Source: an uncultured virus (IMG/VR IMGVR_UViG_3300007345_000031)
Taxonomy: Duplodnaviria; Heunggongvirae; Uroviricota; Caudoviricetes
IMG/VR virus record: IMGVR_UViG_3300007345_000031
Strand: one strand, 5' to 3'
DNA: 64,000 nucleotides
A program made the translations under genes and the position numbers. Shown in pieces: positions 18,519 to 52,968 of this stretch; position 1 is the stretch's first letter, and every line of letters starts with the position of its first letter. The notes beneath the pieces were generated by a model that searched no databases, was not told where the DNA came from, and worked only from the letters and a program-made list of their open reading frames with translations.

Positions 18519-18667
18519 ACTGGGCCCTGTAAAGTGTCCTAGTGATGTGAGGGAGAGCAATCAACTTCACAACACCAGTTGACAACGGTTCTCCGATTTG
18601 TTATACTGACCTCATCAAACGAAACACTGTTTGATCTCGTATCCTTCTTCTAACATATTGAAGAAGT

Positions 18668-19906
18668 ATGCAAAAACCCACACTTTTTCAAACTTCAATT
18701 ATGCAGACCAATCAAAATTTTATGATCCCGCTCAAGGAGCCTATTAGTCTTCTTGAATATGCTTACCTTCTGCTTAAGACCCGTAAGTTTTGTGCTCCAG
18801 AGCAATTCCAACGCCCTGAAGCATGGCAAGTAAAGGATCGTAAATCATTTTTTCAATCAGTGTTGATGAATCGTGCAGAAGGCACTCTTGTCTTGGTTGA
18901 TATTCAACAATGTATCGAACGTATGGAATATGGCGGAGATACAAGTAGCGATACTTATAAATTTTTCAAAAAATACTTTAATGAAGGGTTCAAGTATTTT
19001 GTTCTAGATGGTAACAACCGTCTGTGCTTTATCACTTCTCTTCTAGAAGATAATTATCTTATTCCCGAAGGGACTTACGAATTTATCAGTGATGAAGTCA
19101 ACGGAAACATTTCATCATTTACTGTTCGCAAGGGAAAGCAAAAGTTCTCTGACCTGCCTACACGAGTTCAACGTGTTATTCAATCTCGAAAGTCTGTGTT
19201 GAGTGTCTATACTCAAATTACCTTGGAAGGTATGTCTGAAGTGTTCCAAAATGTGAACTCTGGTGTTCCTCTTAACGCACAAGAACTTCGCAACGCATAT
19301 TCTTCTCCTTGGGCTGAGTTTTTTCGCGATCTTTCAAAGGAGGTTGCACCTCTTCTTGGTTACACTCACAAAGACCCCATTTTCCGTCTTAAGGGTCAAG
19401 AATGGTTGGTTGATTGTATTGCCATGGCAATTGATGGAATTGCAATCAATGAAGTTACTGGAGAACTTCAATTTACTGGAGTTACACAAACATCTAAAAA
19501 CAAACTGTATAAGAGCACTTTCTTTACTCAAGAGGAGCAAAACTTCTATACTAATAAATTCATTGAATTGATGGATTTCATTTCTCAAATGCTCCATGAT
19601 GAAATTCTTGAAGAAAAATCTCTCAAGCAAAAATCTAAAATCCAAAATCTTTATTGGATGATGACAACTGTTGATGGAATTGAGACCTATGATCAAGCAG
19701 TTGCAGCTGTTGAAAAGCAAGAAATTGCTTATCTTGACAAGCAACGTAAGTTTGGTGAAGAGGACAAAACCTTCCGTCAATGTTGTGAAGGCATGAATGC
19801 TGAAAACTTGGAGGTTCGATACACAATTCTTACCGAAATTCTTACCGAAGTGGTCGGTGAGCGCAATGATTTCTCTACTCTCAATGAAGTTTTTGAAAGT
19901 GTCTGA
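18668..19906 (+). CDS. DUF262/ParB-like (GmrSD N-terminal type) protein
   Basis: FQRPEAW, VLDGNNRL and VFQNVNSGVPLNAQELRNA correspond to the DUF262 QR / DGQQR / FxxxN motifs. Confidence 0.75.
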   Translation: MQKPTLFQTSIMQTNQNFMIPLKEPISLLEYAYLLLKTRKFCAPEQFQRPEAWQVKDRKSFFQSVLMNRAEGTLVLVDIQQCIERMEYGGDTSSDTYKFFKKYFNEGFKYFVLDGNNRLCFITSLLEDNYLIPEGTYEFISDEVNGNISSFTVRKGKQKFSDLPTRVQRVIQSRKSVLSVYTQITLEGMSEVFQNVNSGVPLNAQELRNAYSSPWAEFFRDLSKEVAPLLGYTHKDPIFRLKGQEWLVDCIAMAIDGIAINEVTGELQFTGVTQTSKNKLYKSTFFTQEEQNFYTNKFIELMDFISQMLHDEILEEKSLKQKSKIQNLYWMMTTVDGIETYDQAVAAVEKQEIAYLDKQRKFGEEDKTFRQCCEGMNAENLEVRYTILTEILTEVVGERNDFSTLNEVFESV

Positions 19907-19995
19907 ACCTTGCGTTAGTTAGGAAGGAGTTTCAAGGGTTCTTTGAGTAATCATTGGGCCCTTCAAAGTGTTTTAGTTCTGTAACCATCTATTCT

Positions 19996-20187
19996 ATGAA
20001 ACGAGAATTTATCTGCGTTCAACCAAAATCCAATAAAGCAAAGAATCGTTTTGCTAATGAGATGGATAAACTTCATTCTTGTGTTGTTGAACAACGCACA
20101 GGAGGAAAGGTGTTTCTATCTTCTATCAGTGGAAAATACTCTTTTTGGATGAGTGAATCCTCTGATGATAACTGGGACGTTATTTAG
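19996..20187 (+). CDS. Hypothetical protein
   Basis: ATG just downstream of repeat copy 2; MKREFICVQPKS... Confidence 0.65.
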   Translation: MKREFICVQPKSNKAKNRFANEMDKLHSCVVEQRTGGKVFLSSISGKYSFWMSESSDDNWDVI

Positions 20188-20317
20188 CACTAGGCATAAA
20201 TTTTTGTTGCCAAATGTCCTGATTTTCACACATTTTTGATAAATAGTGATAGAATTATGAGGTACACCCATGAATCCGTATTCTACATTATGATGTTCAA
20301 TGTGCTTGGAGGATATT

Positions 20318-20494
20318 ATGCACAATCTTATTTCTTACAATCAACTTGCGGGTTGGAAGCAATTTGAAACGACACTGAATCATTTCAATGAGCAAAGCGA
20401 TGTCATCAATGATTACTACCAATGTTTAATAGAATGTGATGACAAACAGCATATCTGCAAAAAAATTTGTAAGGAGGTGCTCAATCAAGAATAA
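20318..20494 (+). CDS. Small protein with two CxxxC motifs
   Basis: GGAGG SD; MHNLISYNQLAGW...DYYQCLIECDDKQHICKKIC. Confidence 0.7.
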   Translation: MHNLISYNQLAGWKQFETTLNHFNEQSDVINDYYQCLIECDDKQHICKKICKEVLNQE

Positions 20495-20547
20495 TAATAA
20501 TACATAGCCCTTGACGTAACCCGTCAGGGGTTTTATACTAAAACTGG

Positions 20548-20985
20548 ATGGTAAATCTCATGAAACTGCAACCTCTTCTTCTGGCATTAACTGTTTTTTG
20601 TTCTGCTGCTCCTGCAAGTGCAGAGGTTTATATGTATCATGAATCATATTGCTATGAGAATATAGAAGAATATGTGCCAGGGTATCGTAATCGTTGGGGA
20701 AGATATGTTGGTGGTTATGTAAAGACAACTAGATCTAGAGTTCCATGCCACAGACATAGAAGTTATAGATCTGAACATCATCACTATCATTCCAATAACA
20801 ACAATAATCAAAGCAAATCTAATGGAAAGAAAGACGATAATTCATGTATTGAAGGAAGTATATTAGGTGGTATTGCTGGTGGTGGTGCCGGTGCAGCTTT
20901 GTCTAGAGGAGATGGACGCTTTTGGGCGATTCCTACAGGCATTGTAGCTGGTGCATTAGTTGGATGTCAAATTGATGGCGGCTAA
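20548..20985 (+). CDS. Secreted/membrane protein with C-terminal glycine zipper
   Basis: Signal peptide ending AAPASA; GSILGGIAGGGAGAALS...GIVAGALVGC. Confidence 0.75.
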   Translation: MVNLMKLQPLLLALTVFCSAAPASAEVYMYHESYCYENIEEYVPGYRNRWGRYVGGYVKTTRSRVPCHRHRSYRSEHHHYHSNNNNNQSKSNGKKDDNSCIEGSILGGIAGGGAGAALSRGDGRFWAIPTGIVAGALVGCQIDGG

Positions 20986-21249
20986 ACAAAAAAACATAGT
21001 CACTTATGTAACCATGAATCTGGGGCAAGACAATACGTTTTGCAAATATCCTGGTAAAATGGTTACTATAGGAACGATGTCAATTGCACTATACTGGTTA
21101 GTAATGCTTGGTATGGTTGTAAACGCATATTATCATCATCACATCAACGTTGATATTGTTACAAAGTGTTAAGCAAATAAAAAGAGAATCTTAAAAAAAC
21201 GGATCAGGTCAAAAATTCATAGTAAAATATTTTGAATCACACATAATCA

Positions 21250-21411
21250 ATGACCCGACCATCAAAATCCACCGAACTCACTCAAGAAGAGTGGAACGAT
21301 ATGAAAGCAATCCGAAATGCTATCAAAGAAAGACCACATTCAGTTCATCCTGATAAGATGGAGGCATTTACAGAGTATTTGATTCGTAGCATGAGGGGAA
21401 TGGATTGTTGA
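21250..21411 (+). CDS. Hypothetical 53-aa protein (absent from ORF track)
   Basis: MTRPSKSTELTQEEW...; stop lies 3 nt before repeat copy 3. Confidence 0.6.
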   Translation: MTRPSKSTELTQEEWNDMKAIRNAIKERPHSVHPDKMEAFTEYLIRSMRGMDC

Positions 21412-21462
21412 AACTGGGCCCTTCAAAGTGTTCTGTTAATGTAAGCACCATTCCAATGTAGC

Positions 21463-21645
21463 ATGATAGATTTAGATAAACTTTCGCACGAAGAAAAGGA
21501 AGCCCTTGCAGAAGATTGTGAGGACTATCTTTTACATCGTAACATTCCTCTCTTTTCGCATTCATATGATAACATCATTTTACATGCGTTAAGAGAGGGT
21601 TATCAGATAAAAAAGTTCGATCGTTTCACGAATAAACCACAATGA
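21463..21645 (+). CDS. Hypothetical protein
   Basis: First ORF after repeat copy 3; ATGA overlap with a 48-aa ORF at 21642-21788. Confidence 0.6.
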   Translation: MIDLDKLSHEEKEALAEDCEDYLLHRNIPLFSHSYDNIILHALREGYQIKKFDRFTNKPQ

Positions 21646-21836
21646 ACAATAAAAAAACAAACAAATCAAATCGTCAAGAAGAAAAATTTTGGAATCAAAT
21701 TGAAAAGGAAGCTTCAAAGTATGAAGTAACCGTTGATTATTATTTGGATGAATTTGTTATTGATAATCAATACTTCATGAAAGATTGACAAGGACTTCAT
21801 TTTTTATTATACTTTTGAGGTAATCTAACCAAATCA

Positions 21837-22073
21837 ATGACAAAGTATTTCTACACTGTTGACCACTTCATTCCCTTTCCCCGTTCTGAATATGGTGGAG
21901 TGTGGGTTGTTGTTGCCGAAAATGATGAAGAATGTTTTGATCTGATCACTGCTGAAGATGAAGGAGCGAACGATGACTATTATGGTCGTCTTCGTGAAAA
22001 CATCATGAAGGCACCAACATATGCTCTTGCTGAAGAGTATGATTCTGGTATTGTGGAGCAATTTACGACATGA
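21837..22073 (+). CDS. Hypothetical acidic protein
   Basis: Follows the promoter at 21785; GAGG SD. Confidence 0.7.
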   Translation: MTKYFYTVDHFIPFPRSEYGGVWVVVAENDEECFDLITAEDEGANDDYYGRLRENIMKAPTYALAEEYDSGIVEQFTT

Positions 22074-22357
22074 ATCTCAAAGATATTGAATTTGGTCATA
22101 AACCACCAAAAGGATTTCGGTATGAGGTAAGAGATTTCAAACGTAATGTTATTTCTATTTGGTTATGTCATCCAAATGTATACACATACAAATCTGAACC
22201 CATAAAAACAATCTGGGGATTTTATGATACCAAGAAAAAACAATATCTTGCTCCTAAAGATTGTAAAACTGTAGGTAAAGTTGTAGATTTTGCAGATACA
22301 AGAAATTATACTGCGATGCAACTCAATCTAAATCCTCTAGAGAGAGCTTTTTTATGA
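22070..22357 (+). CDS. Hypothetical protein
   Basis: ATGA-coupled to both neighbours. Confidence 0.7.
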   Translation: MNLKDIEFGHKPPKGFRYEVRDFKRNVISIWLCHPNVYTYKSEPIKTIWGFYDTKKKQYLAPKDCKTVGKVVDFADTRNYTAMQLNLNPLERAFL

Positions 22358-22626
22358 CATATACGCCAAAGGTTAATGATTATGTAAAATGGCATCATGG
22401 CGAATTTATTGATGAAGGATGGGTTTATTTTCGATGTAGTGATTACATCACAATTGAAGTTGGAACAAAGGATAAACCAGATACATTAGTTGATATTCAC
22501 AAGAAGACTCACATTCTTGTTGTATGTCAAAACTGGTATTGGCACGAGTTAGAGTATCTCCACAGTCGTGGGGATATTGGTGTAAGTGAGTATAAATCTC
22601 AAGAACATAGACCCATTGACCCTTAA
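22354..22626 (+). CDS. Hypothetical protein
   Basis: ATGA-coupled; followed by a 47-aa ORF at 22630-22773 ending 3 nt before repeat copy 4. Confidence 0.7.
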   Translation: MTYTPKVNDYVKWHHGEFIDEGWVYFRCSDYITIEVGTKDKPDTLVDIHKKTHILVVCQNWYWHELEYLHSRGDIGVSEYKSQEHRPIDP

Positions 22627-22823
22627 ATCATGTATCAAGTGAATTATCTTAAACCTAAAAAGAAAGGTTTTGCAAATCATTCAGCATCTTTCATCAAAAT
22701 TGAAGATGCTATTTTTTGGGAGAAACTCAAAAAGACAGAGGGATGTAAGGATTTTCAAATTCTGGTTAAGTAAAACTGGGCCCTCTAAAGTGTTCCACTA
22801 TTGTAATCAACGATTCACACAAA

Positions 22824-22964
22824 ATGGATTGGTTCGACGACATTCAAATTGAAGAACTTTCTAACTTTGATTATCAAGAAGATCCTCTCGAAGAGGAACT
22901 CTTTGAAGAAAACAATGATGAGAAAGCTTTTCAAGCATTTCTAAAGTCTAACTGGGATTTTTGA
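22824..22964 (+). CDS. Very acidic 46-aa protein (absent from ORF track)
   Basis: MDWFDDIQIEELSNFDYQEDPLEEELFEENNDEKAFQAFLKSNWDF; first ORF after repeat copy 4. Confidence 0.6.
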   Translation: MDWFDDIQIEELSNFDYQEDPLEEELFEENNDEKAFQAFLKSNWDF

Positions 22965-23003
22965 TCTAAACATTTATAACTTTTCACCTCAACTGTACTC
23001 AAA

Positions 23004-23183
23004 ATGAACTCTTCTAGCACTCTTTACGAACTCCAAGAACTCAAGAAACTCTGGAGGAATCAATCTTTCTACTTTTCTCAAGAGCAAAAGAAACGTTATG
23101 AAGAACTTACGAAACTTCGTCATGCTCGTGTCAAAGAATTGTATGAAAATGATATGGTCTTCAAACCTGGAGTAACTAAATAA
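23004..23183 (+). CDS. Hypothetical 59-aa protein
   Basis: MNSSSTLYELQELKKLW...; open frame in the strand and style of its neighbours. Confidence 0.6.
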   Translation: MNSSSTLYELQELKKLWRNQSFYFSQEQKKRYEELTKLRHARVKELYENDMVFKPGVTK

Positions 23184-23277
23184 TCTGAATATATGTGGGC
23201 AGTCAACGCTGCAGGGGTGTAATGTTGACGTAAGTCCCACTTTATGTTATAAATAATGATACCCCTGCAAAAGAATT

Positions 23278-23586
23278 ATGAAAGATGTATTCGCGTCCCT
23301 GCAAGAAATGGAGTGGGACGACTATATCCCACCCGAAGATATTATCTCCATTCATGATACCGACTTCACAAAACTTCCACGCTGCGAATGGAAGACTAAA
23401 AGGTATTGGTGGAATAATGGAGTTGATGAAACATTGCAAGAAAAATGTCCTCCTGGATGGAAAAGGGGCAGGGCAATGAGTGAAGAGCATAAAAATAAAT
23501 TTAAATGTCAACCTGGCAGGCAAAAAGGTATCCCAAAAAATACAAACAGAAAAAGAGACAGTAAAGGGAGAGTTTGTGGCAGTTGA
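23278..23586 (+). CDS. NUMOD-type DNA-binding protein or homing endonuclease remnant
   Basis: YWWNNGVDE...PPGWKRGR and MSEEHKNK motifs; no nuclease domain visible. Confidence 0.55.
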   Translation: MKDVFASLQEMEWDDYIPPEDIISIHDTDFTKLPRCEWKTKRYWWNNGVDETLQEKCPPGWKRGRAMSEEHKNKFKCQPGRQKGIPKNTNRKRDSKGRVCGS

Positions 23587-23653
23587 AGAGGTGTCCCTGA
23601 CCCCTTGACTTCTAGCGGCAATAAATATAAGATATGAGTAGTCAAGAACACCA

Positions 23654-24223
23654 ATGAAAACCTTTTCTTCTTTTTTAGCAGAAGTTTATGATCGTGATGT
23701 CATGGGTTCTTCACAAATTCGCAAACAAGGCGAAGGTGGAAGAGTTGGAGCTGATCGTAGAAAGACAGAAGCTGAAAAGCGTCGCACCAAGTTAGGACCA
23801 GGAGGAACAAGAGTTCCTGCTAAATCTTACAAACCAAGAAAAGATATTGGTACGCAAAGACAAGCATCTACAAGATTGCAGCAACCAGAGAAAGAAAGAG
23901 GTGCTGCTGATGTAAAAGCAAGAGCAGCTGCAGCAGCAAAGGAAGAAAGAAAGAAAGCAGCACAGGCAAGAATTGCTGCAAGAAAAGCAGGCAAACCTGC
24001 ACCAACAGCACAAAAACCAAAATCAAAAGATGCTGAAAAGGAAGGCACTAAATTACTCTCAAAAAAAGGGACTACTCAAAAGAAAACTGGTGAGAAAATT
24101 GAAAGAACAACTTCACGCCAATACACCAGAGATGAAAAGAAAAGAATGGTAAGAGCTGGCAAGAGATTGCAAAAAGATTTGCAAAAAGGAGTTGATAGAC
24201 CTGCTTCACATTACCAACCATAA
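23654..24223 (+). CDS. Highly basic protein, candidate internal head protein
   Basis: N-terminus MKTFSSFLAE resembles the T4 capsid-targeting sequence; K/R/A-rich; late promoter at 23621. Confidence 0.65.
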   Translation: MKTFSSFLAEVYDRDVMGSSQIRKQGEGGRVGADRRKTEAEKRRTKLGPGGTRVPAKSYKPRKDIGTQRQASTRLQQPEKERGAADVKARAAAAAKEERKKAAQARIAARKAGKPAPTAQKPKSKDAEKEGTKLLSKKGTTQKKTGEKIERTTSRQYTRDEKKRMVRAGKRLQKDLQKGVDRPASHYQP

Positions 24224-24331
24224 TCTCACTGGGCCCTTCAAAGTGTCCTTGTAGTGAGTCCATAATCGTCCATAACACCCTTGACACTGACGTTGAGGGT
24301 GTTATACTATCTTTATCGTAATTCTATTTTG

Positions 24332-25522
24332 ATGGTCACACTTCGTCCTCATCAGCAACGTATTCTTGATCGTATGCTTGCCTATGATAAGGGTCAAATT
24401 ATTGTGCCTACTGGTGGTGGCAAAACTATCTGTATGATTCAAGATGTTGCAGAGAATTGTAAGCACATTGATAACGGAATGACCACGGTTGTGGTTGCTC
24501 CTCGTATTCTTCTTGCAGAACAACTTTGCAGCGAGTTTCTGGAGATTATTGATACAAATTACAATCACATTATGCACGTTCATAGTGGTGAGACACATCA
24601 CTTCTCTACCACTAATCCAGAGAAGATTGCATTGTTTGCTAACACTGCTCGCACAGCTGGTGAGAATGTAATCATCTTCACCACCTATCATTCTCTGGAC
24701 AGAGTTCGTCAAGCAGATATTGAAGTTAATAACATTTACTTTGATGAAGCACACAATTCTGTTCAACGAAACTTCTTTCCTTCTACAGAGTTTTTCTCTC
24801 ATGATGCTGATCGTTGCTATTTCTTTACTGCGACTCCGAAACATTCTCTTACGGTGAGCAAACCAGGGATGAATGACCCAGAAGTTTATGGTCAAGTCCT
24901 GGTCAATGTTCCTGCTCCAGAGCTTGTTGATGGTGGATACATTCTCCCTCCCAAAGTTGTTGTAAAGCAACTTGATATGGTTCAGGATAAGTTCAAGATT
25001 TGGTCTCGTGATTGTGACTTTCTGATGCAGACCATTGATGACCAGCAAACTGATAAAGTTCTGGTCTGTGCTCGCACTACCAAACAGATTGTTGGTCTTA
25101 TCGGTGAGAGTGATTTTGCACTTGAATGTGCCAAACGTGGCATGTCTTGGATGACAATCACCAGCAAGACTGGTGCTATCATTGACGGTCAGAAAGTGAA
25201 CCGTGAGGTATTTTTTGACACTCTCAATGCTTGGGGTAAAGATTCCAACAAGAAGTTTGTGGTTCTTCATCACTCTATTCTATCTGAAGGTATCAACGTA
25301 AATGGTTTAGAGTCGGTAATTTTCCTCCGCAACATGGACTTTATAGGTATTAGCCAGTCTATTGGACGAGTTATACGTCTAGGAGGCAGCCACAAGACCT
25401 TTGGATTGGTCTGTGTGCCCGTTTATGACTCTGTGGGTATCTCTACCTCCCGCAAGGTTCAGGCAGTCGTTGACACCGTATTTGAGCAAGGTTTGCCAGC
25501 AGTTTCGGAGATCCGCAGATGA
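24332..25522 (+). CDS. Superfamily 2 (DEAH, ResIII-like) helicase
   Basis: LRPHQ, PTGGGKT (motif I), FDEAH (II), TATP (III), LSEGIN (V), QSIGRVIR (VI). Confidence 0.9.
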   Translation: MVTLRPHQQRILDRMLAYDKGQIIVPTGGGKTICMIQDVAENCKHIDNGMTTVVVAPRILLAEQLCSEFLEIIDTNYNHIMHVHSGETHHFSTTNPEKIALFANTARTAGENVIIFTTYHSLDRVRQADIEVNNIYFDEAHNSVQRNFFPSTEFFSHDADRCYFFTATPKHSLTVSKPGMNDPEVYGQVLVNVPAPELVDGGYILPPKVVVKQLDMVQDKFKIWSRDCDFLMQTIDDQQTDKVLVCARTTKQIVGLIGESDFALECAKRGMSWMTITSKTGAIIDGQKVNREVFFDTLNAWGKDSNKKFVVLHHSILSEGINVNGLESVIFLRNMDFIGISQSIGRVIRLGGSHKTFGLVCVPVYDSVGISTSRKVQAVVDTVFEQGLPAVSEIRR

Positions 25523-25761
25523 GTTATCAACCAACAAATTCTTATATTCTTGAACCACAACAATCCCCACTAGGTTTTATTGTTGGTAACTGGAATGACC
25601 CTAATGTTTATGCAGCAGTGCCATTGTCTGGTAGTAAAACACAATTAGTTGTTATACATCGCGGGAGACAAATTAAAACATGTCGCAATCGCCAATCAGC
25701 AATCAACTTTATTGAAAAACATAGAAAAGGTAAAAGTGTAGCAAAACTGCCCATTGATTGA
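25519..25761 (+). CDS. Hypothetical protein
   Basis: ATGA-coupled to the helicase; stop 3 nt before repeat copy 6. Confidence 0.65.
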   Translation: MSYQPTNSYILEPQQSPLGFIVGNWNDPNVYAAVPLSGSKTQLVVIHRGRQIKTCRNRQSAINFIEKHRKGKSVAKLPID

Positions 25762-25790
25762 TAGTGGGCCCTTCAAAGTGTCCTTATAGT

Positions 25791-26690
25791 ATGCAGAACA
25801 AACACATCGAACACCCCGAAGATTTTATTCTCACTGGTGACTTATCTGTTTTGGATTGGTTTTGTGAGGATGACAGTTATGTTTCTCTCAAGATTGATGG
25901 TGCTCCCGCTATTGTTTGGGGTATCAATCCTGCCACCAATCAATTCTTTGTAGGAACCAAATCAGTTTTCAACAAGAAACTAATTAAAATCAATGAAACG
26001 CATGATGACATTGATCAGAATCATTCTGGCAATGTTGCTAACATATTACACCATTGTTTTGATTACCTTCCTCGTATCAACGGGATTATTCAAGGTGATT
26101 TTATTGGGTTCGGTGGTAGTGATACTTTTCAGCCCAATACGATTACTTACAAGTTTCCGGAGACGATAACTCAAAACATTATCATTGCTCCACACACTTT
26201 TTATACGGCAGAGCATGATCTTCGAGATGCTATTGCACAACCATTGAAGTTCACTATCACTGACACAATGTATTGTAAGATTGTGCATCCTGATGCGTGG
26301 ATTCTTGATGACATTGATTTGCACAAGTCTGCACGATTTGCACGTCAGATGTCAACTCTGGTTGAATTTGCGACACCAAAGCAACTTCCACTCATCAAGA
26401 AAGTTCTCAATACCTACTTCAAGATTGGTGCAGAGATTGATGAGGATGAAATTGCATATATTGCACAATGTGATGTCAACCTGATTCGGCTTTGGAAGTT
26501 GGTAAGGTCTATCAAACAGGATATGCTTTACATGTGTCAGAATGATTCTGATATGCAATGTGAAATCAATGATGAAGAAGTTGATCATGAAGGTTATGTT
26601 TGCACAAATCAGTTTGGTACATACAAACTGGTAGATCGCGAGGTCTTTAGTCGCCAAAATTTTATTAACGATAAAGTATGGGCCCCTTAA
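25791..26690 (+). CDS. Conserved phage protein with ligase/nucleotidyltransferase-like motifs
   Basis: KHIEHPED, KIDG (KxDG), QGDFIG, HEGYV, KLVDR. Start codon lies at the end of repeat 6; stop lies inside repeat 7. Confidence 0.65.
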   Translation: MQNKHIEHPEDFILTGDLSVLDWFCEDDSYVSLKIDGAPAIVWGINPATNQFFVGTKSVFNKKLIKINETHDDIDQNHSGNVANILHHCFDYLPRINGIIQGDFIGFGGSDTFQPNTITYKFPETITQNIIIAPHTFYTAEHDLRDAIAQPLKFTITDTMYCKIVHPDAWILDDIDLHKSARFARQMSTLVEFATPKQLPLIKKVLNTYFKIGAEIDEDEIAYIAQCDVNLIRLWKLVRSIKQDMLYMCQNDSDMQCEINDEEVDHEGYVCTNQFGTYKLVDREVFSRQNFINDKVWAP

Positions 26691-26719
26691 AGTGTCCTAT
26701 TGATGAGAACGAAATTATC

Positions 26720-27295
26720 ATGAATCTAACTGCAATCGTTGAACTCTATGAGACTGAAGTTGATCAACTTCCCCAGACTCATTTTGAGTTAGGTGGTGGT
26801 GCTGCTCGTTCTGAATCTGGTTTGGTTTATGAGAACCTGATTGAACGTACTTGTAATGAACTGGCTTTAGATGCCCGCAAAAATGATTACAAAAGCACTG
26901 AAGTAGTTGATGGCACTTGCCTGAAGAATCTTCAAGTTGATAAGCACATCTATCGTAATGGTGTGATGGTAAAAGCAGTAGAATCTAAAACATATTTGGA
27001 TGCTTGCTATCTGAAACGTGCTGTAATGGATTTCATCGAACTGGAGCAATCTCCTGAAGTTCCTGAATGGGTAGAGTACGCAATCTTTGCAGGACAAAAT
27101 GCTTGTGGTAAAGATGCTTTTGCATACTATCAAGCATTTTTCAAAAAGATTACTGGCAAAGAAGTAAAGATCTTCTTTGTGAATCCTTCCCGCAAGCGTT
27201 CATCTTCTCGCCCCATCTACAAGGAAGAGTATCGTGAAGATTTTAAGCTTGACTCTGTAGTGTATAATGAGTTTGTGGAATGGTTGAACAAGTGA
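26720..27295 (+). CDS. PD-(D/E)XK nuclease, putative type II restriction endonuclease
   Basis: GLVYE...LQVDKH...AVESKTYLD catalytic pattern; directly abuts the MTase gene. Confidence 0.65.
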   Translation: MNLTAIVELYETEVDQLPQTHFELGGGAARSESGLVYENLIERTCNELALDARKNDYKSTEVVDGTCLKNLQVDKHIYRNGVMVKAVESKTYLDACYLKRAVMDFIELEQSPEVPEWVEYAIFAGQNACGKDAFAYYQAFFKKITGKEVKIFFVNPSRKRSSSRPIYKEEYREDFKLDSVVYNEFVEWLNK

Positions 27296-28032
27296 TGCTG
27301 TATAACGATGATATGTTCAATGTTCTGGGCAATCTTGAACCCCAGAGCATTGATCTTTTGCTGACAGATTTTCCCTATGGCACACTCAACAAGTCCCGTA
27401 ATCAATGGGATCGTGTGATTGATTATGAAAAGTTCTGGGAGATTGTTGATATTATCTGCAAACCAAATTGTGCTATCATTTCTACAGCAGCACAACCATT
27501 TACATCGGTATTGATCTCTACAAATTATAGGGATTTTAAGTATTGCTTGGTATGGGAAAAAAGTAAAGCAACTGGATACCTGAATGCTAAAAAGCAACCG
27601 ATGAGAGCACATGAAGATATTGTAGTTTTTTACAAGAAACAACCAATCTACAATCCCCAGATGACAAAAGGTACTCCATATGATAAGGGTAAAGCTGTGA
27701 GGGATGCAGAACAATATGGAAAGCAAACTAAAGCTGTGCATGTCAAAAATGAAGATGGGACAAGATACCCTCGCAGTGTACTATATTTTAAGACAGCAGA
27801 AGATGAGGGTAAATTGCATCCTACACAGAAACCTGTTGCACTCTATGAATATCTGATTCGCACATATTCTAATGAAGGTGATACTGTGCTCGATCCTTGT
27901 ATGGGTAGTGGCACCACTGGAATTGCTGCTTTTAATACTAATAGAAACTTTATTGGAATTGAACGTGAAAAGAAATACTTTGATGCTGCACAGGAAAGGT
28001 TAAATCTACCACTATTGAATGCGATGGCATAA
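27280..28032 (+). CDS. DNA N4-C/N6-A methyltransferase (beta class)
   Basis: LLTDFPYG (motif IV variant), HPTQKP, VLDPCMGSGTTG (motif I), FIGIE. Confidence 0.9.
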   Translation: MVEQVMLYNDDMFNVLGNLEPQSIDLLLTDFPYGTLNKSRNQWDRVIDYEKFWEIVDIICKPNCAIISTAAQPFTSVLISTNYRDFKYCLVWEKSKATGYLNAKKQPMRAHEDIVVFYKKQPIYNPQMTKGTPYDKGKAVRDAEQYGKQTKAVHVKNEDGTRYPRSVLYFKTAEDEGKLHPTQKPVALYEYLIRTYSNEGDTVLDPCMGSGTTGIAAFNTNRNFIGIEREKKYFDAAQERLNLPLLNAMA

Positions 28033-28072
28033 TTGGGCCCCTTAAAGTGTCCTATTGATGTAGGTAAAGATT

Positions 28073-28588
28073 ATGATTTCACTTCCTAACCCAAACAGAA
28101 CCATGATTGTTGAATCTACCAATTCTGAAACTTTTTCTGATTTCTGTGCTCAACGTGATGCACAGAATACCATTCAGTTGAATGTCACAAAGTATTGTTT
28201 TATGCTTTGTGATGCACTGCTGAAGAATTTCATTGATTACAGCATCAAGTCTCATCAACGTGCGATTGCTAACTACAACTACACTTATGGTAATGATGAT
28301 TCAACTCAATCAAATTATCATCAGGCATGTATTGAAGACCTGAAGAATGGTCAATGTGGTTATGAGTTCACTGTAGAGTCTGGTCGTAAGTATCACAAAA
28401 TTATGATGAGTGCCAATGGTTCTCGTTCCGTTCATGCTTTTGTTGATAGAAAGACTGGCGAAGTTTACAAACCTGCCAGTATCAAAGCTCCTGCCAAAGG
28501 TGTTCGTTATGACTTGCGATTGATTGAACAACGTGAATGGTTGTTTGAAAATGCAGATTGGGCAGGAGGGTATCTTTATAAGAGGTAA
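28073..28588 (+). CDS. Conserved phage hypothetical protein
   Basis: GRKYHKI...SVHAFVD..TGEVYKPAS.KAPAKGVRY. Confidence 0.7.
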   Translation: MISLPNPNRTMIVESTNSETFSDFCAQRDAQNTIQLNVTKYCFMLCDALLKNFIDYSIKSHQRAIANYNYTYGNDDSTQSNYHQACIEDLKNGQCGYEFTVESGRKYHKIMMSANGSRSVHAFVDRKTGEVYKPASIKAPAKGVRYDLRLIEQREWLFENADWAGGYLYKR

Positions 28589-28624
28589 TGTGCTATACTG
28601 AACATGTTCAATTAAGAGGTTATT

Positions 28625-28985
28625 ATGAACGATCAACGTCATTATCATACTGAAAGTGAGCGTAAACAACTTGATGGAGTTGTCACTGATTCTGATATAA
28701 ATGGGTGGAACATTTCTAAATTGAATCGCATGAAAGTTCGTGCAAACAATCTTCCTGATGACTCTCTGATTATTGATGATGAACTACACTAAACAACAAC
28801 TTGTTGATGCACTTCAACATGAATATGAGTACATGATTCATGATGATTATGATCCTGATGTTGATATGACTCTGGAAGAACATCTTGAATGGTTACATAC
28901 ACTGACCATTCAAGAATTGGTTGAAGAAACATCAACCGATGAAGATTATTATACGCTTGATCAATTCATGTATAATCATTCATGA
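28625..28985 (+). CDS. Two small overlapping hypothetical ORFs (28625-28792 and acidic ~28776-28985)
   Basis: GAGG SD before 28625; second ORF is D/E-rich. Confidence 0.55.
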
Positions 28986-29116
28986 CAAGTAAAGAAAAAC
29001 TTCTGTTCATTTCATCATTCGTTTGGTTTCTACACTGGGGAACATGTCTAGCATCTACACTTCTGGATACGGTTATTCTAAAAAGCTCTGTGAGAGTGTT
29101 ACCTCTTGGTTTTTGA
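28982..29116 (+). CDS. 44-aa hydrophobic peptide overlapping the next gene
   Basis: MTSKEKLLFISSFVWFLHWGTCLASTLLDTVILKSSVRVLPLGF; ATGA-coupled to the upstream stop. Confidence 0.5.
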   Translation: MTSKEKLLFISSFVWFLHWGTCLASTLLDTVILKSSVRVLPLGF

Positions 29117-29466
29117 AGAAGTATTATCCACGTCATAAGATTGATGTGGATATTTTACATCGTGGATTGAGACGTGAAAATGTACTGGGGTATTGTGATG
29201 TAGTTGGTCCTTCTTATCGACCAAGACATTTCCTGATTGAACTTCAGACCGATATGTGTAAGGAGTTGTATATAAAAACTCTTTTACATGAATTGACTCA
29301 TCTTGCACAATGGGTAAGAGGTGATCTACGACACCGATATGGAAAATTGTGTTATTCACAAGAACCAGTGGAAATCTATGACTATGAAGATCAACCACAT
29401 GAAATTGAAGCACGAGAGGAAGAAGAAAGACTCTACAATCTGTACTGTAATGAAATCTTAACATAG
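29044..29466 (+). CDS. Zincin-like (HExxH) metallopeptidase domain protein
   Basis: TLLHELTHLAQ ... QPHEIEA. Confidence 0.75.
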   Translation: MSSIYTSGYGYSKKLCESVTSWFLKKYYPRHKIDVDILHRGLRRENVLGYCDVVGPSYRPRHFLIELQTDMCKELYIKTLLHELTHLAQWVRGDLRHRYGKLCYSQEPVEIYDYEDQPHEIEAREEEERLYNLYCNEILT

Positions 29467-29503
29467 TTGCACTTAAGAATTTCTTCAACTACAATAAAGA
29501 AAA

Positions 29504-29695
29504 ATGGAAAATGGTCAAGAGATGCAAGCTATCAGGGACTTTCTAACAGATGAGCAGTGGCACATTGTGATTGATGCTATCGAACAAGAAGCATTTTTAT
29601 TGGATGAAAGTGAGGAGTATTTTGATAAGTGTGAGGACATTATAAACAGAATCCATTCATTGCTTCACATTACTGGGCCCTCTAAAGTGTCCTAG
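29504..29695 (+). CDS. Acidic hypothetical protein whose C-terminus reads through repeat 9
   Basis: Ends ITGPSKVS*. Confidence 0.55.
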   Translation: MENGQEMQAIRDFLTDEQWHIVIDAIEQEAFLLDESEEYFDKCEDIINRIHSLLHITGPSKVS

Positions 29696-29699
29696 TTGT

Positions 29700-30044
29700 A
29701 TGAAGACCACTATGAAAGAAAACAAGATGACAACACTTTTCCGTCAAGGAATCAAATTTGAAGAGTATTGGGGCACTGAAGTTCGTGCTCATCATATGAA
29801 CACTCGTTCTGTTTATCGTCTGCTGGAAGATGATGACATTGCGATCACACATTCCGCACCATATGTTGATGGTGAAAGTGTTGATCAATTTGCTGTAACT
29901 TTCACCGAAGTTACTGCATATCATGAGAATGGAAATGTGTTATCATCAACCACAAAAACACTTGGAGTTTATGATAACTGGTTGGATGCTTATTACCGAG
30001 CATTCTCTATTCTAAACAAGAAAACATTAGCACAACTTGTGTGA
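29700..30044 (+). CDS. Hypothetical protein
   Basis: First ATG falls at repeat position 27; alternative starts at 29712 and 29727. Confidence 0.65.
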   Translation: MKTTMKENKMTTLFRQGIKFEEYWGTEVRAHHMNTRSVYRLLEDDDIAITHSAPYVDGESVDQFAVTFTEVTAYHENGNVLSSTTKTLGVYDNWLDAYYRAFSILNKKTLAQLV

Positions 30045-30046
30045 TC

Positions 30047-30277
30047 ATGAGAATTGACATTGTAGGTCGAATTATCGGAAGCTTTCTGGTTGTTTCTGCT
30101 TATTTTGTTGTTTTACATGTAAATGTAACATTTGGAGTTCTGATGCACTTCATTGCCGATGCAATTTCCATTCCATTCTTTATACGAACAAAGTCATGGG
30201 ATGTTGTAATTATGTTGGCATTTCTTTTAATCATTTCAACTAGCAAACTGTTCAATTTGGGAGGAATCGTATCATGA
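30047..30277 (+). CDS. Small membrane protein
   Basis: Three hydrophobic segments. Confidence 0.7.
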   Translation: MRIDIVGRIIGSFLVVSAYFVVLHVNVTFGVLMHFIADAISIPFFIRTKSWDVVIMLAFLLIISTSKLFNLGGIVS

Positions 30278-30417
30278 AATGGGATGTGAAACTGTATGTT
30301 GCCGGAAAGGTATTTACCGAAGAAGTTTATGCCCGAGATGCACAAGATGCAAGGGAGACAGCATTAGCACGAAATCCCACTGCTAAAGTTATTGGAGTGA
30401 ATGGGAGTTTCAAATAG
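30274..30417 (+). CDS. 47-aa hypothetical protein (absent from ORF track)
   Basis: MKWDVKLYVAGKVFTEEVYARD...ALARNPTAKVI; GGAGG SD; stop abuts repeat 10. Confidence 0.7.
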   Translation: MKWDVKLYVAGKVFTEEVYARDAQDARETALARNPTAKVIGVNGSFK

Positions 30418-30462
30418 TGGGCCCCTTAAAGTGTCTCATTAGTGTAAGCACAGTTCAGAAAA

Positions 30463-32627
30463 ATGCAAGAATCAAAGTTCCTTCTTCACGGTCAACATCA
30501 TCGTTCTAATGGTTGGGTGATGAATGATTGTTTAGGTTACATCAAAGAAACAAAAGAGGATGCGATTGCTACATGTAATCGACTCAATCCTAACTTTGTG
30601 ATTCACTCTATCACTGTTGAAGAATGACCAAAGCAACACACAAACGATTCACACACATCTTTTGATTATGAACGAAACTGAACTCGAAGCTCTTGAAGTG
30701 ATGGAAACCATTGAGGATTCCGTTGAATATATTTGTAATGAGTATATGTTAAGTGGAGAGAAAGTTTGGACTATGATTGCAGCACTTGCTGATGCAAAGA
30801 TTGCACAATTTCCTGATTGATAATGAGTGGGCCCTTGAAAGTGTTTCAGTAGTGTAAGTCGTTCGTTATTTCAGTCATGCAACTCACTTCCAAAGATGGT
30901 AACATGGTTGTTGATTTCTATCCCGTCAAATTTGCAGACGGTGGGATTCACAATCGTTTGATGCTCAAAGTTGTGACTTTTATTGGTGCAACTCAATCCA
31001 AATCTTACATCAACAAGAAAGATTTTCAGCATGAGGTTGATTCTCGTGTGAAGGGTTATGGTTATCAAGTCACTGATGATTCGATGATTCCACAACTCTT
31101 TAACTCTGCAATGTGTCTTGCTTGCTGATGTCAATTATTCAATCTTATCTTCACAATAAAATGATGGATCGTCTTGAAATGCTTTCTCAACGTGAACAAT
31201 TGATGGAGGACATTGATTGTATTGTATCGGCACAATATGGTCAAGGAAATGAAGAACTTGCTGATGAAATGATTAAGTTGTTATGTGATGCTGTTTGCAA
31301 AAACTTTCCTGCTAACTGATGTCATTTGTTTCCACCTTTGATCATACTAATTCCATGACTGACAACATCATCAACCGTGACGAATTGCAGGACAATCTTA
31401 TTCATCAGATTCTGGATGATATGGATTTGAAGACGATGTATGCTTGCTTATATGATTACATGTCTGAAAGCTATGACAAGTATTCAGTTGATGAAATTGT
31501 CGAAGAAGTCGAAGAGTATTACCCACAATTGTTGGAGGATGCAGATAACTCTTAAAACATGTCAATTTACAAAGATTACTGGACTAAACCAAAACCAACG
31601 AAAGAACCCAAATCAAAAGAATCCAAATGAAAACATCATTTTGTAATGGCAATTCATGGTCTAAATTTGATGCTTACTATCATGATGATAGTGAACAATG
31701 GACTTATGAATTGATTGATGGACATCACCGCACAAGTTTAATTTACGAGGATAATGATGATGAAATTCTACAAGATTACTGATATTGAGTTTGATTTTGA
31801 TTATGAAGACATTACATTGGAGGAACAGAATGAAGTGATCGAAGGTGCCAAAGCTTGTCTATGGGATGCAACAAATGAGGATGATCTTTGTGATGTCATT
31901 AGTGACAACACCGGATGGTTTGTGAAGTCATTCTCTTATGATGTTATTCGATAACAAACACTGGGCCCCTTAAAGTGTTTCAGTAGTGTAGAAACGAAAC
32001 AACTCTCTCAAATGTCTCAACAACTCAATGCTTCTATCTATCGTCAACTCTTCACTGATTGTGAGTGGGATGCTATCTCTTCTGCAATGAAAGATTATGC
32101 TGATTATGGTGACGAAGAAGCAAACATTGCTGATTCGATTGATGCAAAGATCACTCAAATTTTCAAACTTACTGCCTGATTATGTTACATCAACTCCCTA
32201 ACGGTAAAATCATCATGCACGATGGATTAATCCGTGAACTTGCTATTCAACGAATGGAAACTTATGATCGTTGGATACAAGACAATCGTGAACAATTAAA
32301 GATCGAATCTCAACAACTTTTCGATGATATGTTCGGAGGTTAATTCTTTCAATGACTCCGAAATCTTCCGAGGTTTTCCGAGTCGAGTCACGCCCCTAAT
32401 TTTATCAAAAAACTATGATTCTTCTGACATCTGATTCTCACGGTTGTGTGTATACTATTGACAGTGAAGGTTGTTTATACTATATGCCCAAACATCTTGA
32501 TGGATCAATTAACTTTGAAGAACTTGCAGAAGTTGAATCTGTTGATGAATTAGATGATGAAGATACTTCTCAAATTCATTCTCAATTGATTACAATGTCC
32601 AAATCAATTGGTCATTACTTCTGTTAG
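30463..32627 (+). CDS. Cluster of small, mostly acidic ORFs (30463-30627, 30668-30820, 30877-31128, ~31140-31319, 31319-31555, 31754-31954, 32012-32179, 32182-32343, 32415-32627)
   Basis: Tightly packed + strand ORFs of about 50-85 aa between repeats 10 and 13. Confidence 0.6.
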
Positions 32628-32672
32628 TGGGCCCCTGAAAGTGTTTCAATAGTATAGGATACCATTTCTCTC

Positions 32673-33017
32673 ATGCGTAAGATCGAACAACAAATGAACA
32701 ATGCCATTTCTAACAACAAGTCCTGGCAATCTGCAAACACCAGTGTTGTTTGTGATGACAATGGTGTCTCTCATGTGTATCTTCATGGCAACAAGATTGC
32801 AGAGGTTGGTGATGACTTTGTTCAGATCTTTGATGGTGGTTGTCAATCCAATACCACCAAATCCCGTCTGAATGCTATTCTCAAAGAACATGCAATTGAT
32901 GGTGAGTGTGTGTATCAAAAGAACTTCAAATGGTATGTTGATAAGTTCATTGGATGTGCCGGAACTTTCAAGGTTTATAACACTTTCGAGTTCACTGATG
33001 GTTTCATGTTTGCCTGA
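32673..33017 (+). CDS. Conserved phage hypothetical protein
   Basis: MRKIEQQM...VYLHGNKIA...SNTTKSRLNA. Confidence 0.7.
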   Translation: MRKIEQQMNNAISNNKSWQSANTSVVCDDNGVSHVYLHGNKIAEVGDDFVQIFDGGCQSNTTKSRLNAILKEHAIDGECVYQKNFKWYVDKFIGCAGTFKVYNTFEFTDGFMFA

Positions 33018-33022
33018 TTGAT

Positions 33023-33826
33023 TTAACTCTCTTCTCTATACCATCTGCAACCCTTCCAACTATATCTGGAAGGGTTTTTTAATGCCTTCGTTACACCTGT
33101 AGCTTTGCCGCTACCTAACACTCTACCCGCTTCTCTTATACTATCAAAGTGATATATGATTTTCCCGTCTAATATACGCTTGCCATAGATTTTATGGGAG
33201 TAAGGTCTATTATCTAATTTCTCCCACTTATATCCATATGCCACAATCTTCTGTTTGATTGCTCTACTGATGTTGCCAGAACCTCCTTTGATTCCTATAC
33301 TCTTCCGCGCTTCAGTTATGCTATCAAATTCAAGAACTTCTCCCGTCTCGACATTAGTTGCTCTGACTTTTCTCCTAGCATGTTTACCATCACCGCTCTT
33401 ATCTCCGAATGGATTAACCCCTTGATATTTGTCTTTTAGAGTATTACGTATTGAAGCAATATGTTCAGGAGACTTTTCTTTCCCTTGCATAGTTGTTGAT
33501 ATTCTATCCCGAACTTCTTCGCTTATCTCTTTTGCTTGTTCTCCGCCTGTTGTTAGATTGTATCCGTTGTTAAATGTATCAAACTGTTCTATCCAATATC
33601 TCTCCCTATCCGAGAGTTGCGCCGCTGGGATATTAGTTTCTATTTCACGGACAGTAAACATAGAGACGCCATATTTCTTGATTGCTCTATACAATGGTCT
33701 GTGTGATTTACTCTTCGATTCTGTTATATGATGCCGCCATCTTTCGCCCACGGTCTTGATAGTCTGACCGATATATCTCTTGCCATTTACCTTACAAATG
33801 ATTGAGTAGATTGTCCCAGTTGTCAT
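33023..33826 (-). mobile_element. Free-standing GIY-YIG homing endonuclease with NUMOD3/NUMOD1 modules
   Basis: GTIYSI...NGKRYIGQT, RWRHH, ERYWI, GYNLTTGG; KSPEHIASI; two FDSI(T/R)EA HTH-like modules. Only credible minus-strand gene. Confidence 0.88.
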
Positions 33827-34001
33827 AAGATAGCGTGTGATAGAAGGCTTTACTATGTATGATAAAATGCCCCGCTAAATGGTGTCTATATAAAGGTTTA
33901 GCGAATTTATTGTTAGTAACTCCGAATGCACTGTGTAGTTACTTTGGGGCGTATTTACAGTGTTTTTAATGTGTCTAGGAGTAGTGATTTTAGACTGCCC
34001 C

Positions 34002-34132
34002 AGCTTATCACACCACCGAGAAATTGTCAACCCCCCGATGTCAGAATTTCCAGAAATAAGACTTACAAAAATCACACTGATTCTGATAAATACCTGCAAT
34101 GACTTGACAGAAATGCTCTGTTAGATTATACT
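34002..34132. promoter_or_regulatory. Divergent sigma70-type promoter pair
   Basis: Minus strand TTGACA (34030-34025)-17-TAAGCT faces the endonuclease; plus strand TTGACA (34104)-17-TATACT. Confidence 0.65.
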
Positions 34133-34161
34133 ATAAAAGTCACTCAAATCCCCCCAAAGAT

Positions 34162-34335
34162 ATGTCAGTTGCTTATCGCCAGGCACAGAAACAGCGTTAT
34201 CGCATTACTCTTGAGCTTGATGTAATGCATGACTTCGACCCGCACCAGCTTGATTGGGAGAAACTCTTTGAGCTGGAACCGGCAGAGAAGGTGACAGCTT
34301 ATGTGGAGGACTTGAGCACACCGGACTTTTGGTGA
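34162..34335 (+). CDS. 57-aa hypothetical protein (absent from ORF track)
   Basis: MSVAYRQAQKQRYRITLELDV...; follows the promoter at 34104. Confidence 0.65.
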   Translation: MSVAYRQAQKQRYRITLELDVMHDFDPHQLDWEKLFELEPAEKVTAYVEDLSTPDFW

Positions 34336-34464
34336 GTTATAAACAGTGGGCCCTGTAAAGTGTTCTAGTAGTATAAGGGACGCAATCGGACGGACCCACT
34401 GACACCTCACCGATTGAATCTCAAGATCAGATCTGATCATCAGTCAACGTTAATCATCAGTCTT

Positions 34465-34740
34465 ATGACATCAACTTTGCAGTCTAATCTCACCGATACC
34501 ACTTACAACGGGTGGGCGAATTATGAGACCTGGAACGTATCACTCTGGATCGGTAATGATGAGTTTCTTTATAACACTGCCAAGGCATGTGTAAAGTACG
34601 TGAGTGATAACGAAACACCCTACGATAGGTTCGTTCGTTGTATGCACAATAACGAAGATTTCGTCACTGGTGATAACGTGCGTTGGGATGATGATAACAT
34701 CGACCGTGATGAAATTATGGAGATGATGGAAGAACTCTGA
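34465..34740 (+). CDS. Conserved phage hypothetical protein
   Basis: TYNGWANYETWNVSLWIGND motif. Confidence 0.7.
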   Translation: MTSTLQSNLTDTTYNGWANYETWNVSLWIGNDEFLYNTAKACVKYVSDNETPYDRFVRCMHNNEDFVTGDNVRWDDDNIDRDEIMEMMEEL

Positions 34741-52950: not shown

Positions 52951-52968
52951 ATAACTAAAAACATAAAA

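Follow-up and report, generated by a model that had tools for sequence, protein, structure and literature searches.

The window analysed here, a stretch of 64,000 nucleotides from the IMG/VR record IMGVR_UViG_3300007345_000031, comes, judging by its sequence, from an uncultured T4-like cyanomyovirus of the Kyanoviridae type and carries fourteen copies of a 29-base direct repeat, whose distribution, private upstream box, and candidate protein partner are the subject of this report. Among cultured phages, those nearest to it in DNA sequence are SynMITS9220M01, S-SM2, S-SCSM1, and Bellamy, at ~70% identity. T4-like cyanophages account for much of the mortality of marine and lake picocyanobacteria; to our knowledge, they lack the MotA/AsiA system that governs the timing of T4 transcription, and there is no mechanistic understanding of how expression of their first genes is started. 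The array fills a block of small genes, mostly of unknown function, between giant fibre-type open reading frames (ORFs) with a sulfotransferase gene and the gp25/gp6 baseplate genes. Genes in the block include those for a GmrSD_N/DUF262 protein, a UvsW-like helicase, DUF6267, DUF7717, and DUF7249 proteins, an N6/N4 DNA methylase, and a Kyano_Gp96 protein.

The Repeat Array

A pattern search for TGGGCCC-N3-AAAGTGT returned 14 exact matches in the window, all 14 on the + strand, and no match in any of 100 dinucleotide-preserving shuffles. The first five copies lie at 18521..18549 (TGGGCCC-TGT-AAAGTGT-CCTAG-TGAT-G, with a sigma-70-type promoter downstream at 18579), 19955..19983 (with the next ATG 19 nt past position 23), 21415..21443, 22777..22805, and 24230..24258, the fifth being 6 nt past the stop of the gene for a basic protein, here called p189, and having a hairpin-embedded sigma-70 promoter and the helicase gene on its downstream side. 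The sixth copy (25765..25793) has an ATG at position 27 (25791) that is the start of the DUF6267 gene; the seventh (26679..26707) is entered by the upstream ORF, whose stop lies 12 nt inside; the eighth is at 28034..28062; and the ninth (29674..29702) is likewise entered from upstream and has an ATG at position 27 (29700) that opens ORF 29700-30044. The remaining copies are at 30418..30446, 30828..30856, 31962..31990, 32628..32656, which heads the Kyano_Gp96-family gene, and 34347..34375, which heads the DUF7249 gene.

All 14 copies share the strand of the genes and sit in or at gene junctions. In 11 of them, the box starts 0-11 nt past the end of the upstream ORF, and in one (19955) 32 nt past it; in the two cases mentioned, that ORF runs into the motif. 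T at positions 23 and 26 and a purine at position 27 are invariant in the window, and position 24 is A in only 8 of the 14 copies. No copy with one or two mismatches was found in the window; at up to three mismatches, the search added a single minus-strand match with three mismatches that lies over the palindromic part of copy 29674. In G001, the 89-kb record of which the window is a part, the same 14 copies are found and no further ones at up to one mismatch. The original prediction, made from the letters of the window, is thus borne out as to the number, coordinates, and strand of the copies, the spacer letters that it listed for each, the invariant positions, the geometry with respect to stop codons, and the restriction of the repeat to this block rather than the flanking structural genes; its remark that the motif has no -35/-10 pair or stem-loop of its own likewise agrees with the promoter scan and fold scores given below.

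Shared Core and Private Box

Public viral contigs hold at least 237 stretches that match the exact pattern, and copies within any one contig are always co-oriented among the matches listed; five larger contigs with the same box have 8-15 copies each on a single strand. The extended consensus, built from 257 unique 110-nt windows out of 326 listed instances after those with short flanks were dropped, reads aC-TGGGCCC-YTK-AAAGTGT-CCYAG-TAGTAT-RA..A, with frequencies of 0.93 for T at position 23, 0.95 for T at position 26, and 0.97 for A/G at position 27. Cultured relatives have the same downstream half joined to another upstream block, which is TTACTCACC in SynMITS9220M01 and GGGGGGTCG in S-SM2.

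When 80 helicase-centred loci were scanned with the core and tail only, the box playing no part in site finding, the upstream blocks proved uniform per contig and of at least seven types: TGGGCCC, GCCGGCCY, ACTGAAGCC, ACTGTAGCY, GGGGGGACG, GGGGGGTCG, and TTACTCACC. Contigs L271 (12/12 copies), L321 (10/10), and L309 (7/7) are examples. Because the box stays constant inside a genome whereas N3 and N5 vary, selection on the box would explain its uniformity better than simple homogenisation of copies. The layout of the signal is a private box of 7-11 nt followed by the shared core, N3-AAAGTGT-N5-TAGT-R, with a downstream tail such as GTAAGCAC or ATGAGCAC, and 12-15 co-oriented copies occupy one small-gene block of 14-16 kb. 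In the complete genome of SynMITS9220M01 (190 kb), all 12 copies share a strand and fall within 36.3-50.0 kb, and in that of S-SM2 (191 kb), 12/12 copies likewise share a strand and fall within 42.7-58.5 kb, in both cases before gp25. A uniform box, the shared core, co-oriented copies in the block before gp25, and a gene of the p189 family thus occur together. From this distribution, the 14 repeats of the window are one lineage's version of a putative gene-start signal that a clade of T4-like cyanophages has in common.

A blastn search of a phage collection with a 33-nt copy of the motif gave nothing relevant, and none of the literature matches listed for TGGGCCC together with phage is relevant by title. 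The motif is not given in the available passages of PMC5780444, PMC5082946, PMC11726456, PMC6708340, PMC7238727, PMC5931967, and PMC10976474.

A Candidate Reader of the Box

When the ORFs of the block were each compared with genomes that have the same box and with genomes that have another, p189, encoded at 23654..24223 on the + strand, stood out as the candidate reader of the private box. It is a very basic protein of 189 aa with a conserved N-terminal part of ~85 aa, which its homologues have in common at ~70% identity, and a variable C-terminal part of ~45 aa, which falls into classes. Public data contain 2094 family members at E<=0.001, all of which lack a name and a Pfam domain; when 39 of them were put through a relaxed Pfam scan, neither a helix-turn-helix nor sigma region 4 nor any other meaningful match came up, and the ESM-Atlas neighbours are unnamed viral clusters. 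The sole confident part of its AlphaFold model is a helix at residues 159-178 (pLDDT ~90), which lies in the box-linked variable segment; the protein may bear some likeness to the recognition helix of sigma-70 region 4.2 and to the arginine-rich motif of lambda N. Among the 80 helicase loci, 21 have both a p189-family gene and the motif, 2 (short fragments) the motif only, 6 p189 only, and 51 neither; a diverged motif is present in four of the six p189-only loci.

The variable tail of p189 follows the box. In a first set of 17 of the 22 distinct p189-family proteins (136 pairs, five proteins with no assignable box being excluded), identity of the C-terminal tail averaged 81.5% in the 28 same-box pairs, with a minimum of 53, vs 26.5% in the 108 different-box pairs, with a maximum of 49, and N-domain identities overlapped (74.7 vs 69.1). 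In all 231 of the 231 triplets in which a different-box protein had the closer N-domain, the same-box partner nevertheless had the closer tail. The window's own p189 is a case in point: its N-domain is nearer to other-box proteins (65-74%) than to those of the same-box genomes G002 and G003 (60 and 55%), but its tail is nearer to G002 and G003 (71 and 60%) than to other-box proteins (18-42%). The helicase and DUF6267 proteins of the window are also closer to those of other-box phages than to those of G002 and G003. A second set, sampled via the N-domain, comprised 80 loci with 62 distinct proteins, 55 of them with a box; here tail identity was 67.2% for 419 same-box pairs vs 35.7% for 1066 different-box pairs, N-domain identity was 65.2% vs 63.4%, and the triplet test held in 11,001 of 12,264 cases. 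In both sets, then, the classes of the C-terminal helix, as defined by tail sequence, match the box classes, whereas the N-domain does not.

Upstream of the p189 gene lies ATAAATA (23621..23627, + strand), 33 nt before the ATG. Words of the TAAATA type are the core of T4-type late promoters, and ATAAATA is the commonest intergenic 7-mer in Syn9. Of 55 distinct p189 upstream regions, 54 have [ACT]TAAATA at a distance of 28-34 nt from the ATG, vs 59 of 1147 (5.1%) other ORF starts in the same loci. This late-promoter-like motif indicates that the protein is probably made late, and its presence on the gene of a basic protein inside an early block suggests that p189 may be packaged in the virion.

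One IMG/VR contig, L291 (7.8 kb), carries three different boxes (ACCGAAGCY, TTACTCACC, and GGAGTATCG) and could represent a transitional or recombinant state. Its p189-family protein has a further tail class, which is common to L292-L295, whose core is diverged (GTTACTCAGC-TGT-TGATCGT).

Distribution Among Complete Genomes

A profile of the p189 family matches 3 of 10 complete cyanophage genomes, namely SynMITS9220M01, S-SM2, and P-TIM68, with no match in S-SM1, Bellamy, P-SSM2, S-SCSM1, Syn9, S-CAM9, or S-SKS1; the members from cultured phages are S-SM2 gene SSM2_065, P-TIM68 protein AIR93418.1, and the product of the SynMITS9220M01 gene at 40815-41420. An earlier scan based on AAAGTGT had found nothing in P-TIM68. 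An array was predicted there from the presence of p189 and was then found by k-mer inspection: at least 11 co-oriented copies of GTTAGTTACC-TCT-AAATTGA-N5-T.A.. lie at 47157-54834, with none on the opposite strand, and the tail of the P-TIM68 protein belongs to the class that goes with the similar box ACTCACC. A 10-mer count in the examined parts of the seven genomes with no p189 match showed only coding repeats.

Gene Starts and Transcripts

An ATG occupies motif positions 27-29 in 51 of 132 copies from 12 genomes; it opens an ORF of at least 30 codons in 49 of the 51 cases and of at least 50 codons in 48. Position 27 is where the DUF6267 gene starts, both in the window and in most relatives, and the Pfam model matches its product from about the third residue onwards. 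The remaining gene starts cluster 17-29 nt past position 23. Because a gene begins with the ATG at position 27 in 49 of the 132 signals, any transcript starting at the motif would have to begin at or before that base. The pyrimidine-purine step at positions 26/27, together with gene starts that fall either at 27 or 13 nt or more beyond it, is consistent with transcription beginning at position 27, the invariant purine after an invariant T, and this is our best guess. Given such a start, about 37% of the messages would be leaderless. The 60-nt windows around the 14 copies showed no consistent or unusually stable fold (z -1.5 to +1.6), and the window has no Rfam match.

The RNA data are assembled contigs of two metatranscriptome runs, X17 and X18, which amount to 42 pieces and give sparse cover; segments such as 20267-20908, 23649-24021, and 35537-36147 are covered at 100% identity. 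Contig starts from X17 and X18 coincide within 1 nt (20267/20268) and 12 nt (23649/23661), just downstream of a -10-like TAGAAT (20250) or of the ATAAATA before the p189 gene, which is a weak hint that segments 20267-20908 and 23649-24021 are expressed in nature.

Proposed Mechanism

We put a probability of roughly 55% on the reading that the motif is a phage-specific transcription-start signal, with a core used by the host polymerase and a private box that p189 recognises through its C-terminal helix. The signal would head the transcription units of an early-type, hyperplastic block of small genes between the fibre genes and the gp25/gp6 baseplate genes. Its shared core would be read by something conserved, most simply host RNA polymerase, and its lineage-specific 7-11-nt box by the C-terminal basic helix of p189, the conserved N-terminal part of which would hold a conserved partner. 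The protein, probably made late, may travel in the virion and would thus be present when the DNA enters the next cell, where it could switch the block on or could equally act as a late/middle shut-off factor. Transcripts beginning at position 27 would supply leaderless messages for a third of the genes.

Several observations weigh against this proposal, in whole or in part. As to the promoter, a sigma-70 consensus scan found a -35/-10 pair in none of the 14 copies, barring chance overlaps at 18507 and 24237. If TAGTAT (positions 23-28) were a -10 element, the start ~7 nt later would fall after the ATG at 27 and inside a third of the genes, and AAGTGT (positions 12-17) is a poor match to a -10. 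Among the 16 X17/X18 pieces listed, no contig begins at a motif, and an X18 contig (21247-21474) spans copy 21415, which shows that some RNA does contain the motif. As to p189, it has no Pfam or PHROG match and thus no known DNA-binding domain, its AlphaFold model is of low confidence outside the helix (mean pLDDT 64.6, pTM 0.23), its target could be RNA, and the suggestion of packaging comes solely from the late-promoter-like motif. As to the covariation, some boxes that differ by one base go with similar tails (AGGGCCC/TGGGCCC; TGTAGCC/TGAAGCC, 75%), a second, unrelated tail class occurs with the TGAAGCC box in L430 and L459 and with the ACTCACC box in L446, and the mixed boxes of L291 are an exception. 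The p189 gene lies inside the array, so that linkage contributes to the association of box and tail, and the sequences are related, so that pair counts are not independent. The absence of an array from the seven genomes with no p189 match is likewise an absence by AAAGTGT and k-mer scans that at first missed P-TIM68.

A bolder form of the proposal, which we regard as a possibility worth entertaining although on balance doubtful, makes the box a private code: injected p189 would read the box of its own lineage and bring the host polymerase to a core that is not of the sigma-70 type, and the early genes would thus fire at once. Many messages would then be leaderless from their ATG, box and helix would co-evolve, and the early genes of co-infecting relatives would be unreadable.

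Rather less probable in our estimate is an RNA-level signal, transcribed from upstream promoters, with p189 as an arginine/lysine-rich RNA-binding protein after the manner of lambda N and nut. The motif could then be a processing site cut between T26 and R27, an antitermination or stabilising site, or a translation operator. The contig that runs over copy 21415 fits such a signal, as do the lack of a sigma-70-type promoter in the motif and the nature of p189, a basic and mostly disordered protein with one confident helix; the start codon found exactly at 27 in 49 of 132 copies would suit a processing site or translation signal as well as a transcription start. Lambda nut sites combine a conserved boxA with a phage-specific boxB, which the shared and private parts of the cyanophage motif presumably recall. 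However, no conserved RNA structure or Rfam match was detected in the window, the first copy of each array comes directly after late structural genes, and the distance to the other gene starts varies (mostly 17-29 nt past position 23), which fits a transcription start better than an operator.

It is unlikely that the motif is simply a host-read promoter with no phage reader, in which TAGTAT at 23-28 is the -10 for the host sigma factor, a -35 is dispensable as in marine picocyanobacterial promoters, and the boxes have been spread and homogenised by recombination. Positions 23-28 are indeed TAGTAT or TAGTGT (TAnnnT) in most public copies, T4-like phages recombine heavily, and one cassette slot, described below, has breakpoints inside the motif. 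Yet N3 and N5 vary within genomes in which the box is constant, A at position 24 is present in just over half of the window copies, a start ~7 nt past position 28 would truncate the 49 genes that begin at 27, and the box tracks the p189 tail independently of the p189 N-domain and of neighbouring genes.

Turnover of Gene Units at the Motif

The original prediction had favoured an integron-like or promoter-cassette system, in which each unit begins with a shared site for expression and/or recombination. A shared, co-oriented, gene-proximal signal does head each unit, and it is best read as an expression site; no recombinase was found either, none of the 57 window ORFs scanned having a recombinase or integrase Pfam domain. 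The recombination-site half of the claim was not supported by a comparison of indels among 27 sources with at least three motif sites each, aligned as megablast pieces of at least 200 nt at 88% identity or more, with pairs involving L270-L272, which are identical to the window, left out. Of the 13 independent indel or replacement events, eight have no edge near a motif, four have one edge within 12 nt, and one has both. The window and its closest relative, L274 (~96% identical), differ by three indels (170, 136, and 512/64 nt) in which whole small ORFs were gained or lost, and none of the three, which are among the eight, is within 160 nt of a motif. The event with both edges at a motif is the slot L305/L308/L344/L346, the only motif-to-motif swap, in which three different inserts lie between two motifs, with breakpoints inside or at most 2 nt from the motif.

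Edges at a motif number 6-7 of 26 (23-27%), and junctions with a motif 143 of 605 (24%). This equality of shares indicates that recombination, although it happens at the motif, would not be its purpose. Pair-wise, 747 of 857 motif junctions vs 1748 of 2252 others are broken (odds ratio ~2), a somewhat higher rate of synteny breaks in a test that is inflated by spurious small ORFs and non-independent pairs. With most events away from the motif, no recombinase domain among the scanned ORFs, and no inverted repeat in the motif, an integron-like attachment site or PeSL-like seam for the gain, loss, and shuffling of cassettes is very improbable, and recombination as the main function is largely refuted.

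Other Candidates for Reader or Guide

Other readers of the box were considered and rejected. The DNA methyltransferase (27280-28032) has no tblastn match (E<=1e-5) in S-SM2 and SynMITS9220M01, both of which bear an array; the similarity of the DUF6267 and helicase proteins does not track the box; and the DUF7249 protein (34414-34740), which had seemed specific to same-box genomes, has homologues in L309 and L339. An RNA guide complementary to the box was set aside, no reverse complement of the 8-9-nt box being found in complete S-SM2 or SynMITS9220M01, as was a small RNA complementary to the motif tail, since no non-coding cluster of GTG[CG]TTAC was found in the window, G001 1-47 kb, S-SM2, or SynMITS9220M01. 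As for an extra sigma factor, each complete genome has one Sigma70_r2-like ORF (167-181 aa), probably gp55-like, and no region-4 match was found in the complete genomes S-SM2 and SynMITS9220M01. A hidden virion RNA polymerase was also rejected, the giant ORFs having no polymerase domain or solved-structure match to one and only Peptidase_S74, YHYH, Gp8, and DUF4815 matches.

Other Features of the Block and Its Flanks

A second class of promoter is present in the block, represented by eight + strand sigma-70 consensus sites (TTGACA-N16/17-TATACT and close variants). One of them, TTGACA-N16-TATACT at 24272..24308, has its -35 within a hairpin with a 14-bp stem; the consensus scan placed the others at 17957, 18579, 20511, 21785, 34104, 35001, and 35504, and several of the eight hold the -35 hexamer inside a hairpin. 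Upstream of the helicase gene, a -35 in a hairpin loop followed by a T-run and the -10 is found in the window and in most of 74 such regions from relatives, and it is this composite of terminator and promoter that seems to be the real cyanophage counterpart of PeSL. L298 and L338 differ by two indels whose breakpoints fall exactly in hairpin-type sigma-70 promoters.

Phages with no private-box array have another bipartite element, TGTG[AC]CAGT-N5-9-A[AG][AGC][GC]TG[TG][CG]CAC, which abuts hairpin promoters and occurs in L338-L341, L315, L326, S-SM1 (L252 18252 and 19931), and Syn9 (L352 6303-13067). Syn9, which has neither an AAAGTGT-type array nor p189, has four copies of ..GTG[TG][CG]CAC-N27-TCGTGTATTCTATAAGAGTCAAAG; a k-mer search for its element returned mostly coding repeats and the late-promoter word ATAAATA. 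This type of element, the core of which resembles AAAGTGTCC, may be the ancestral form.

The GmrSD_N (DUF262)-type protein (18668-19906) and the pair formed by a 205-aa protein of unknown function and the N6/N4 DNA methylase (26678-28032) look like variable cargo, the methylase on account of its missing counterparts in S-SM2 and SynMITS9220M01. A GIY-YIG/NUMOD1 homing endonuclease gene (33023-33826, - strand) is among the few minus-strand genes of the block. The giant ORFs that flank the block (4429, 2702, 1941, and 2034 aa; 39661-52950, 54535-62643, and 601-12574) match only YHYH, DUF4815 (solved relative 9euf), and the Peptidase_S74 chaperone domain, and look like fibre or baseplate proteins. 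Finally, at least 60% of the sampled words of window positions 21001-31000 were found in each of 16 public DNA runs, 15 of them freshwater metagenomes and one marine; the freshwater labels contrast with the nearest cultured relatives, which infect marine Synechococcus.

Implications

A specificity block that is replaced from lineage to lineage, together with a named candidate reader, turns the switch-on of these genes into a bench question on cultured phages. It would also supply an annotation rule by which early transcription units and true start codons could be recognised in the thousands of contigs from uncultured cyanophages. If the code is truly private, it would bear on co-infection, recombination barriers, and host takeover. 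The covariation of box and tail, the late-type motif on the p189 gene, the statistics of the ATG at position 27, and the P-TIM68 prediction do not appear in the portions of the literature that were available to us.

Comparison with Known Systems

The array shares with integron attC/attI sites the co-oriented repeats that separate units of one to a few genes, but the repeats of the window stand at the 5' end of units and form no imperfect inverted repeat, and cassette turnover is not tied to them. Nor was an integron integrase (intI) found, the only nuclease-type gene among the 57 window ORFs scanned being the GIY-YIG gene.

The PeSL (promoter-early stem-loop) element, as described by Comeau et al. 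(2014; PMC4122927) in a paper that leaves cyanophages aside, is a sigma-70 promoter (TTGACA-N17-TATAAT-like) joined to a stem-loop and occurs as cassettes in the T4-type phages RB49/phi1, T4/PST, and KVP40/nt-1. Both are short, conserved, promoter-type repeats in a hyperplastic region that serve as an occasional exchange point, as in the one motif-to-motif swap. However, the cyanophage motif has no sigma-70 hexamers at ~17-nt spacing and no adjacent or embedded stem-loop, and indel edges appear no commoner at it than at other junctions. The separate hairpin-embedded sigma-70 promoters of the window, such as that at 24272-24308, are a better analogue.

With the promoters of the T7-group polymerases, the motif has in common a long contiguous signal conserved as far as the putative start base, a sub-block that varies from one related phage to another, and a co-varying protein segment. 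A T7-like polymerase (PF00940) had no match in G001-G003, S-SM2, and SynMITS9220M01, the control genomes being likewise unmatched. The motif itself may resemble SP6/T7 promoters in sequence.

Within the cyanophages, Doron et al. are said to have reported in 2016, for Syn9 and P-TIM40, a non-sigma-70 element for early genes and host-like promoters for middle genes, such elements reportedly being abundant in T4-like cyanophages. The array described here is probably the same in kind as that early-gene element, and a match to an already characterised cyanophage early promoter is what the original prediction had named as its own refutation. The window, too, combines two kinds of signal in a single block, namely the motif and sigma-70 promoters of consensus type; the Syn9 of that system has its own four-copy element instead of the AAAGTGT-type array and p189.

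The T4 middle promoters governed by MotA/AsiA differ in several respects, as the cyanophage motif has no MotA box (TGCTT), its box is lineage-private unlike the MotA box, and its candidate reader gene looks late; MotA_activ (PF09114) had no match in 5 records, yet none in any of 14 control genomes either. The outline is nevertheless shared, in that the box ahead of a core promoter would be recognised by a phage protein that redirects the host polymerase, and the proposed division of p189 into a conserved part and a DNA-reading part would parallel a two-part protein. If p189 is indeed carried in the virion and reads a private code, the logic would be the same as that of herpesvirus VP16, a virion-borne activator of immediate-early genes.

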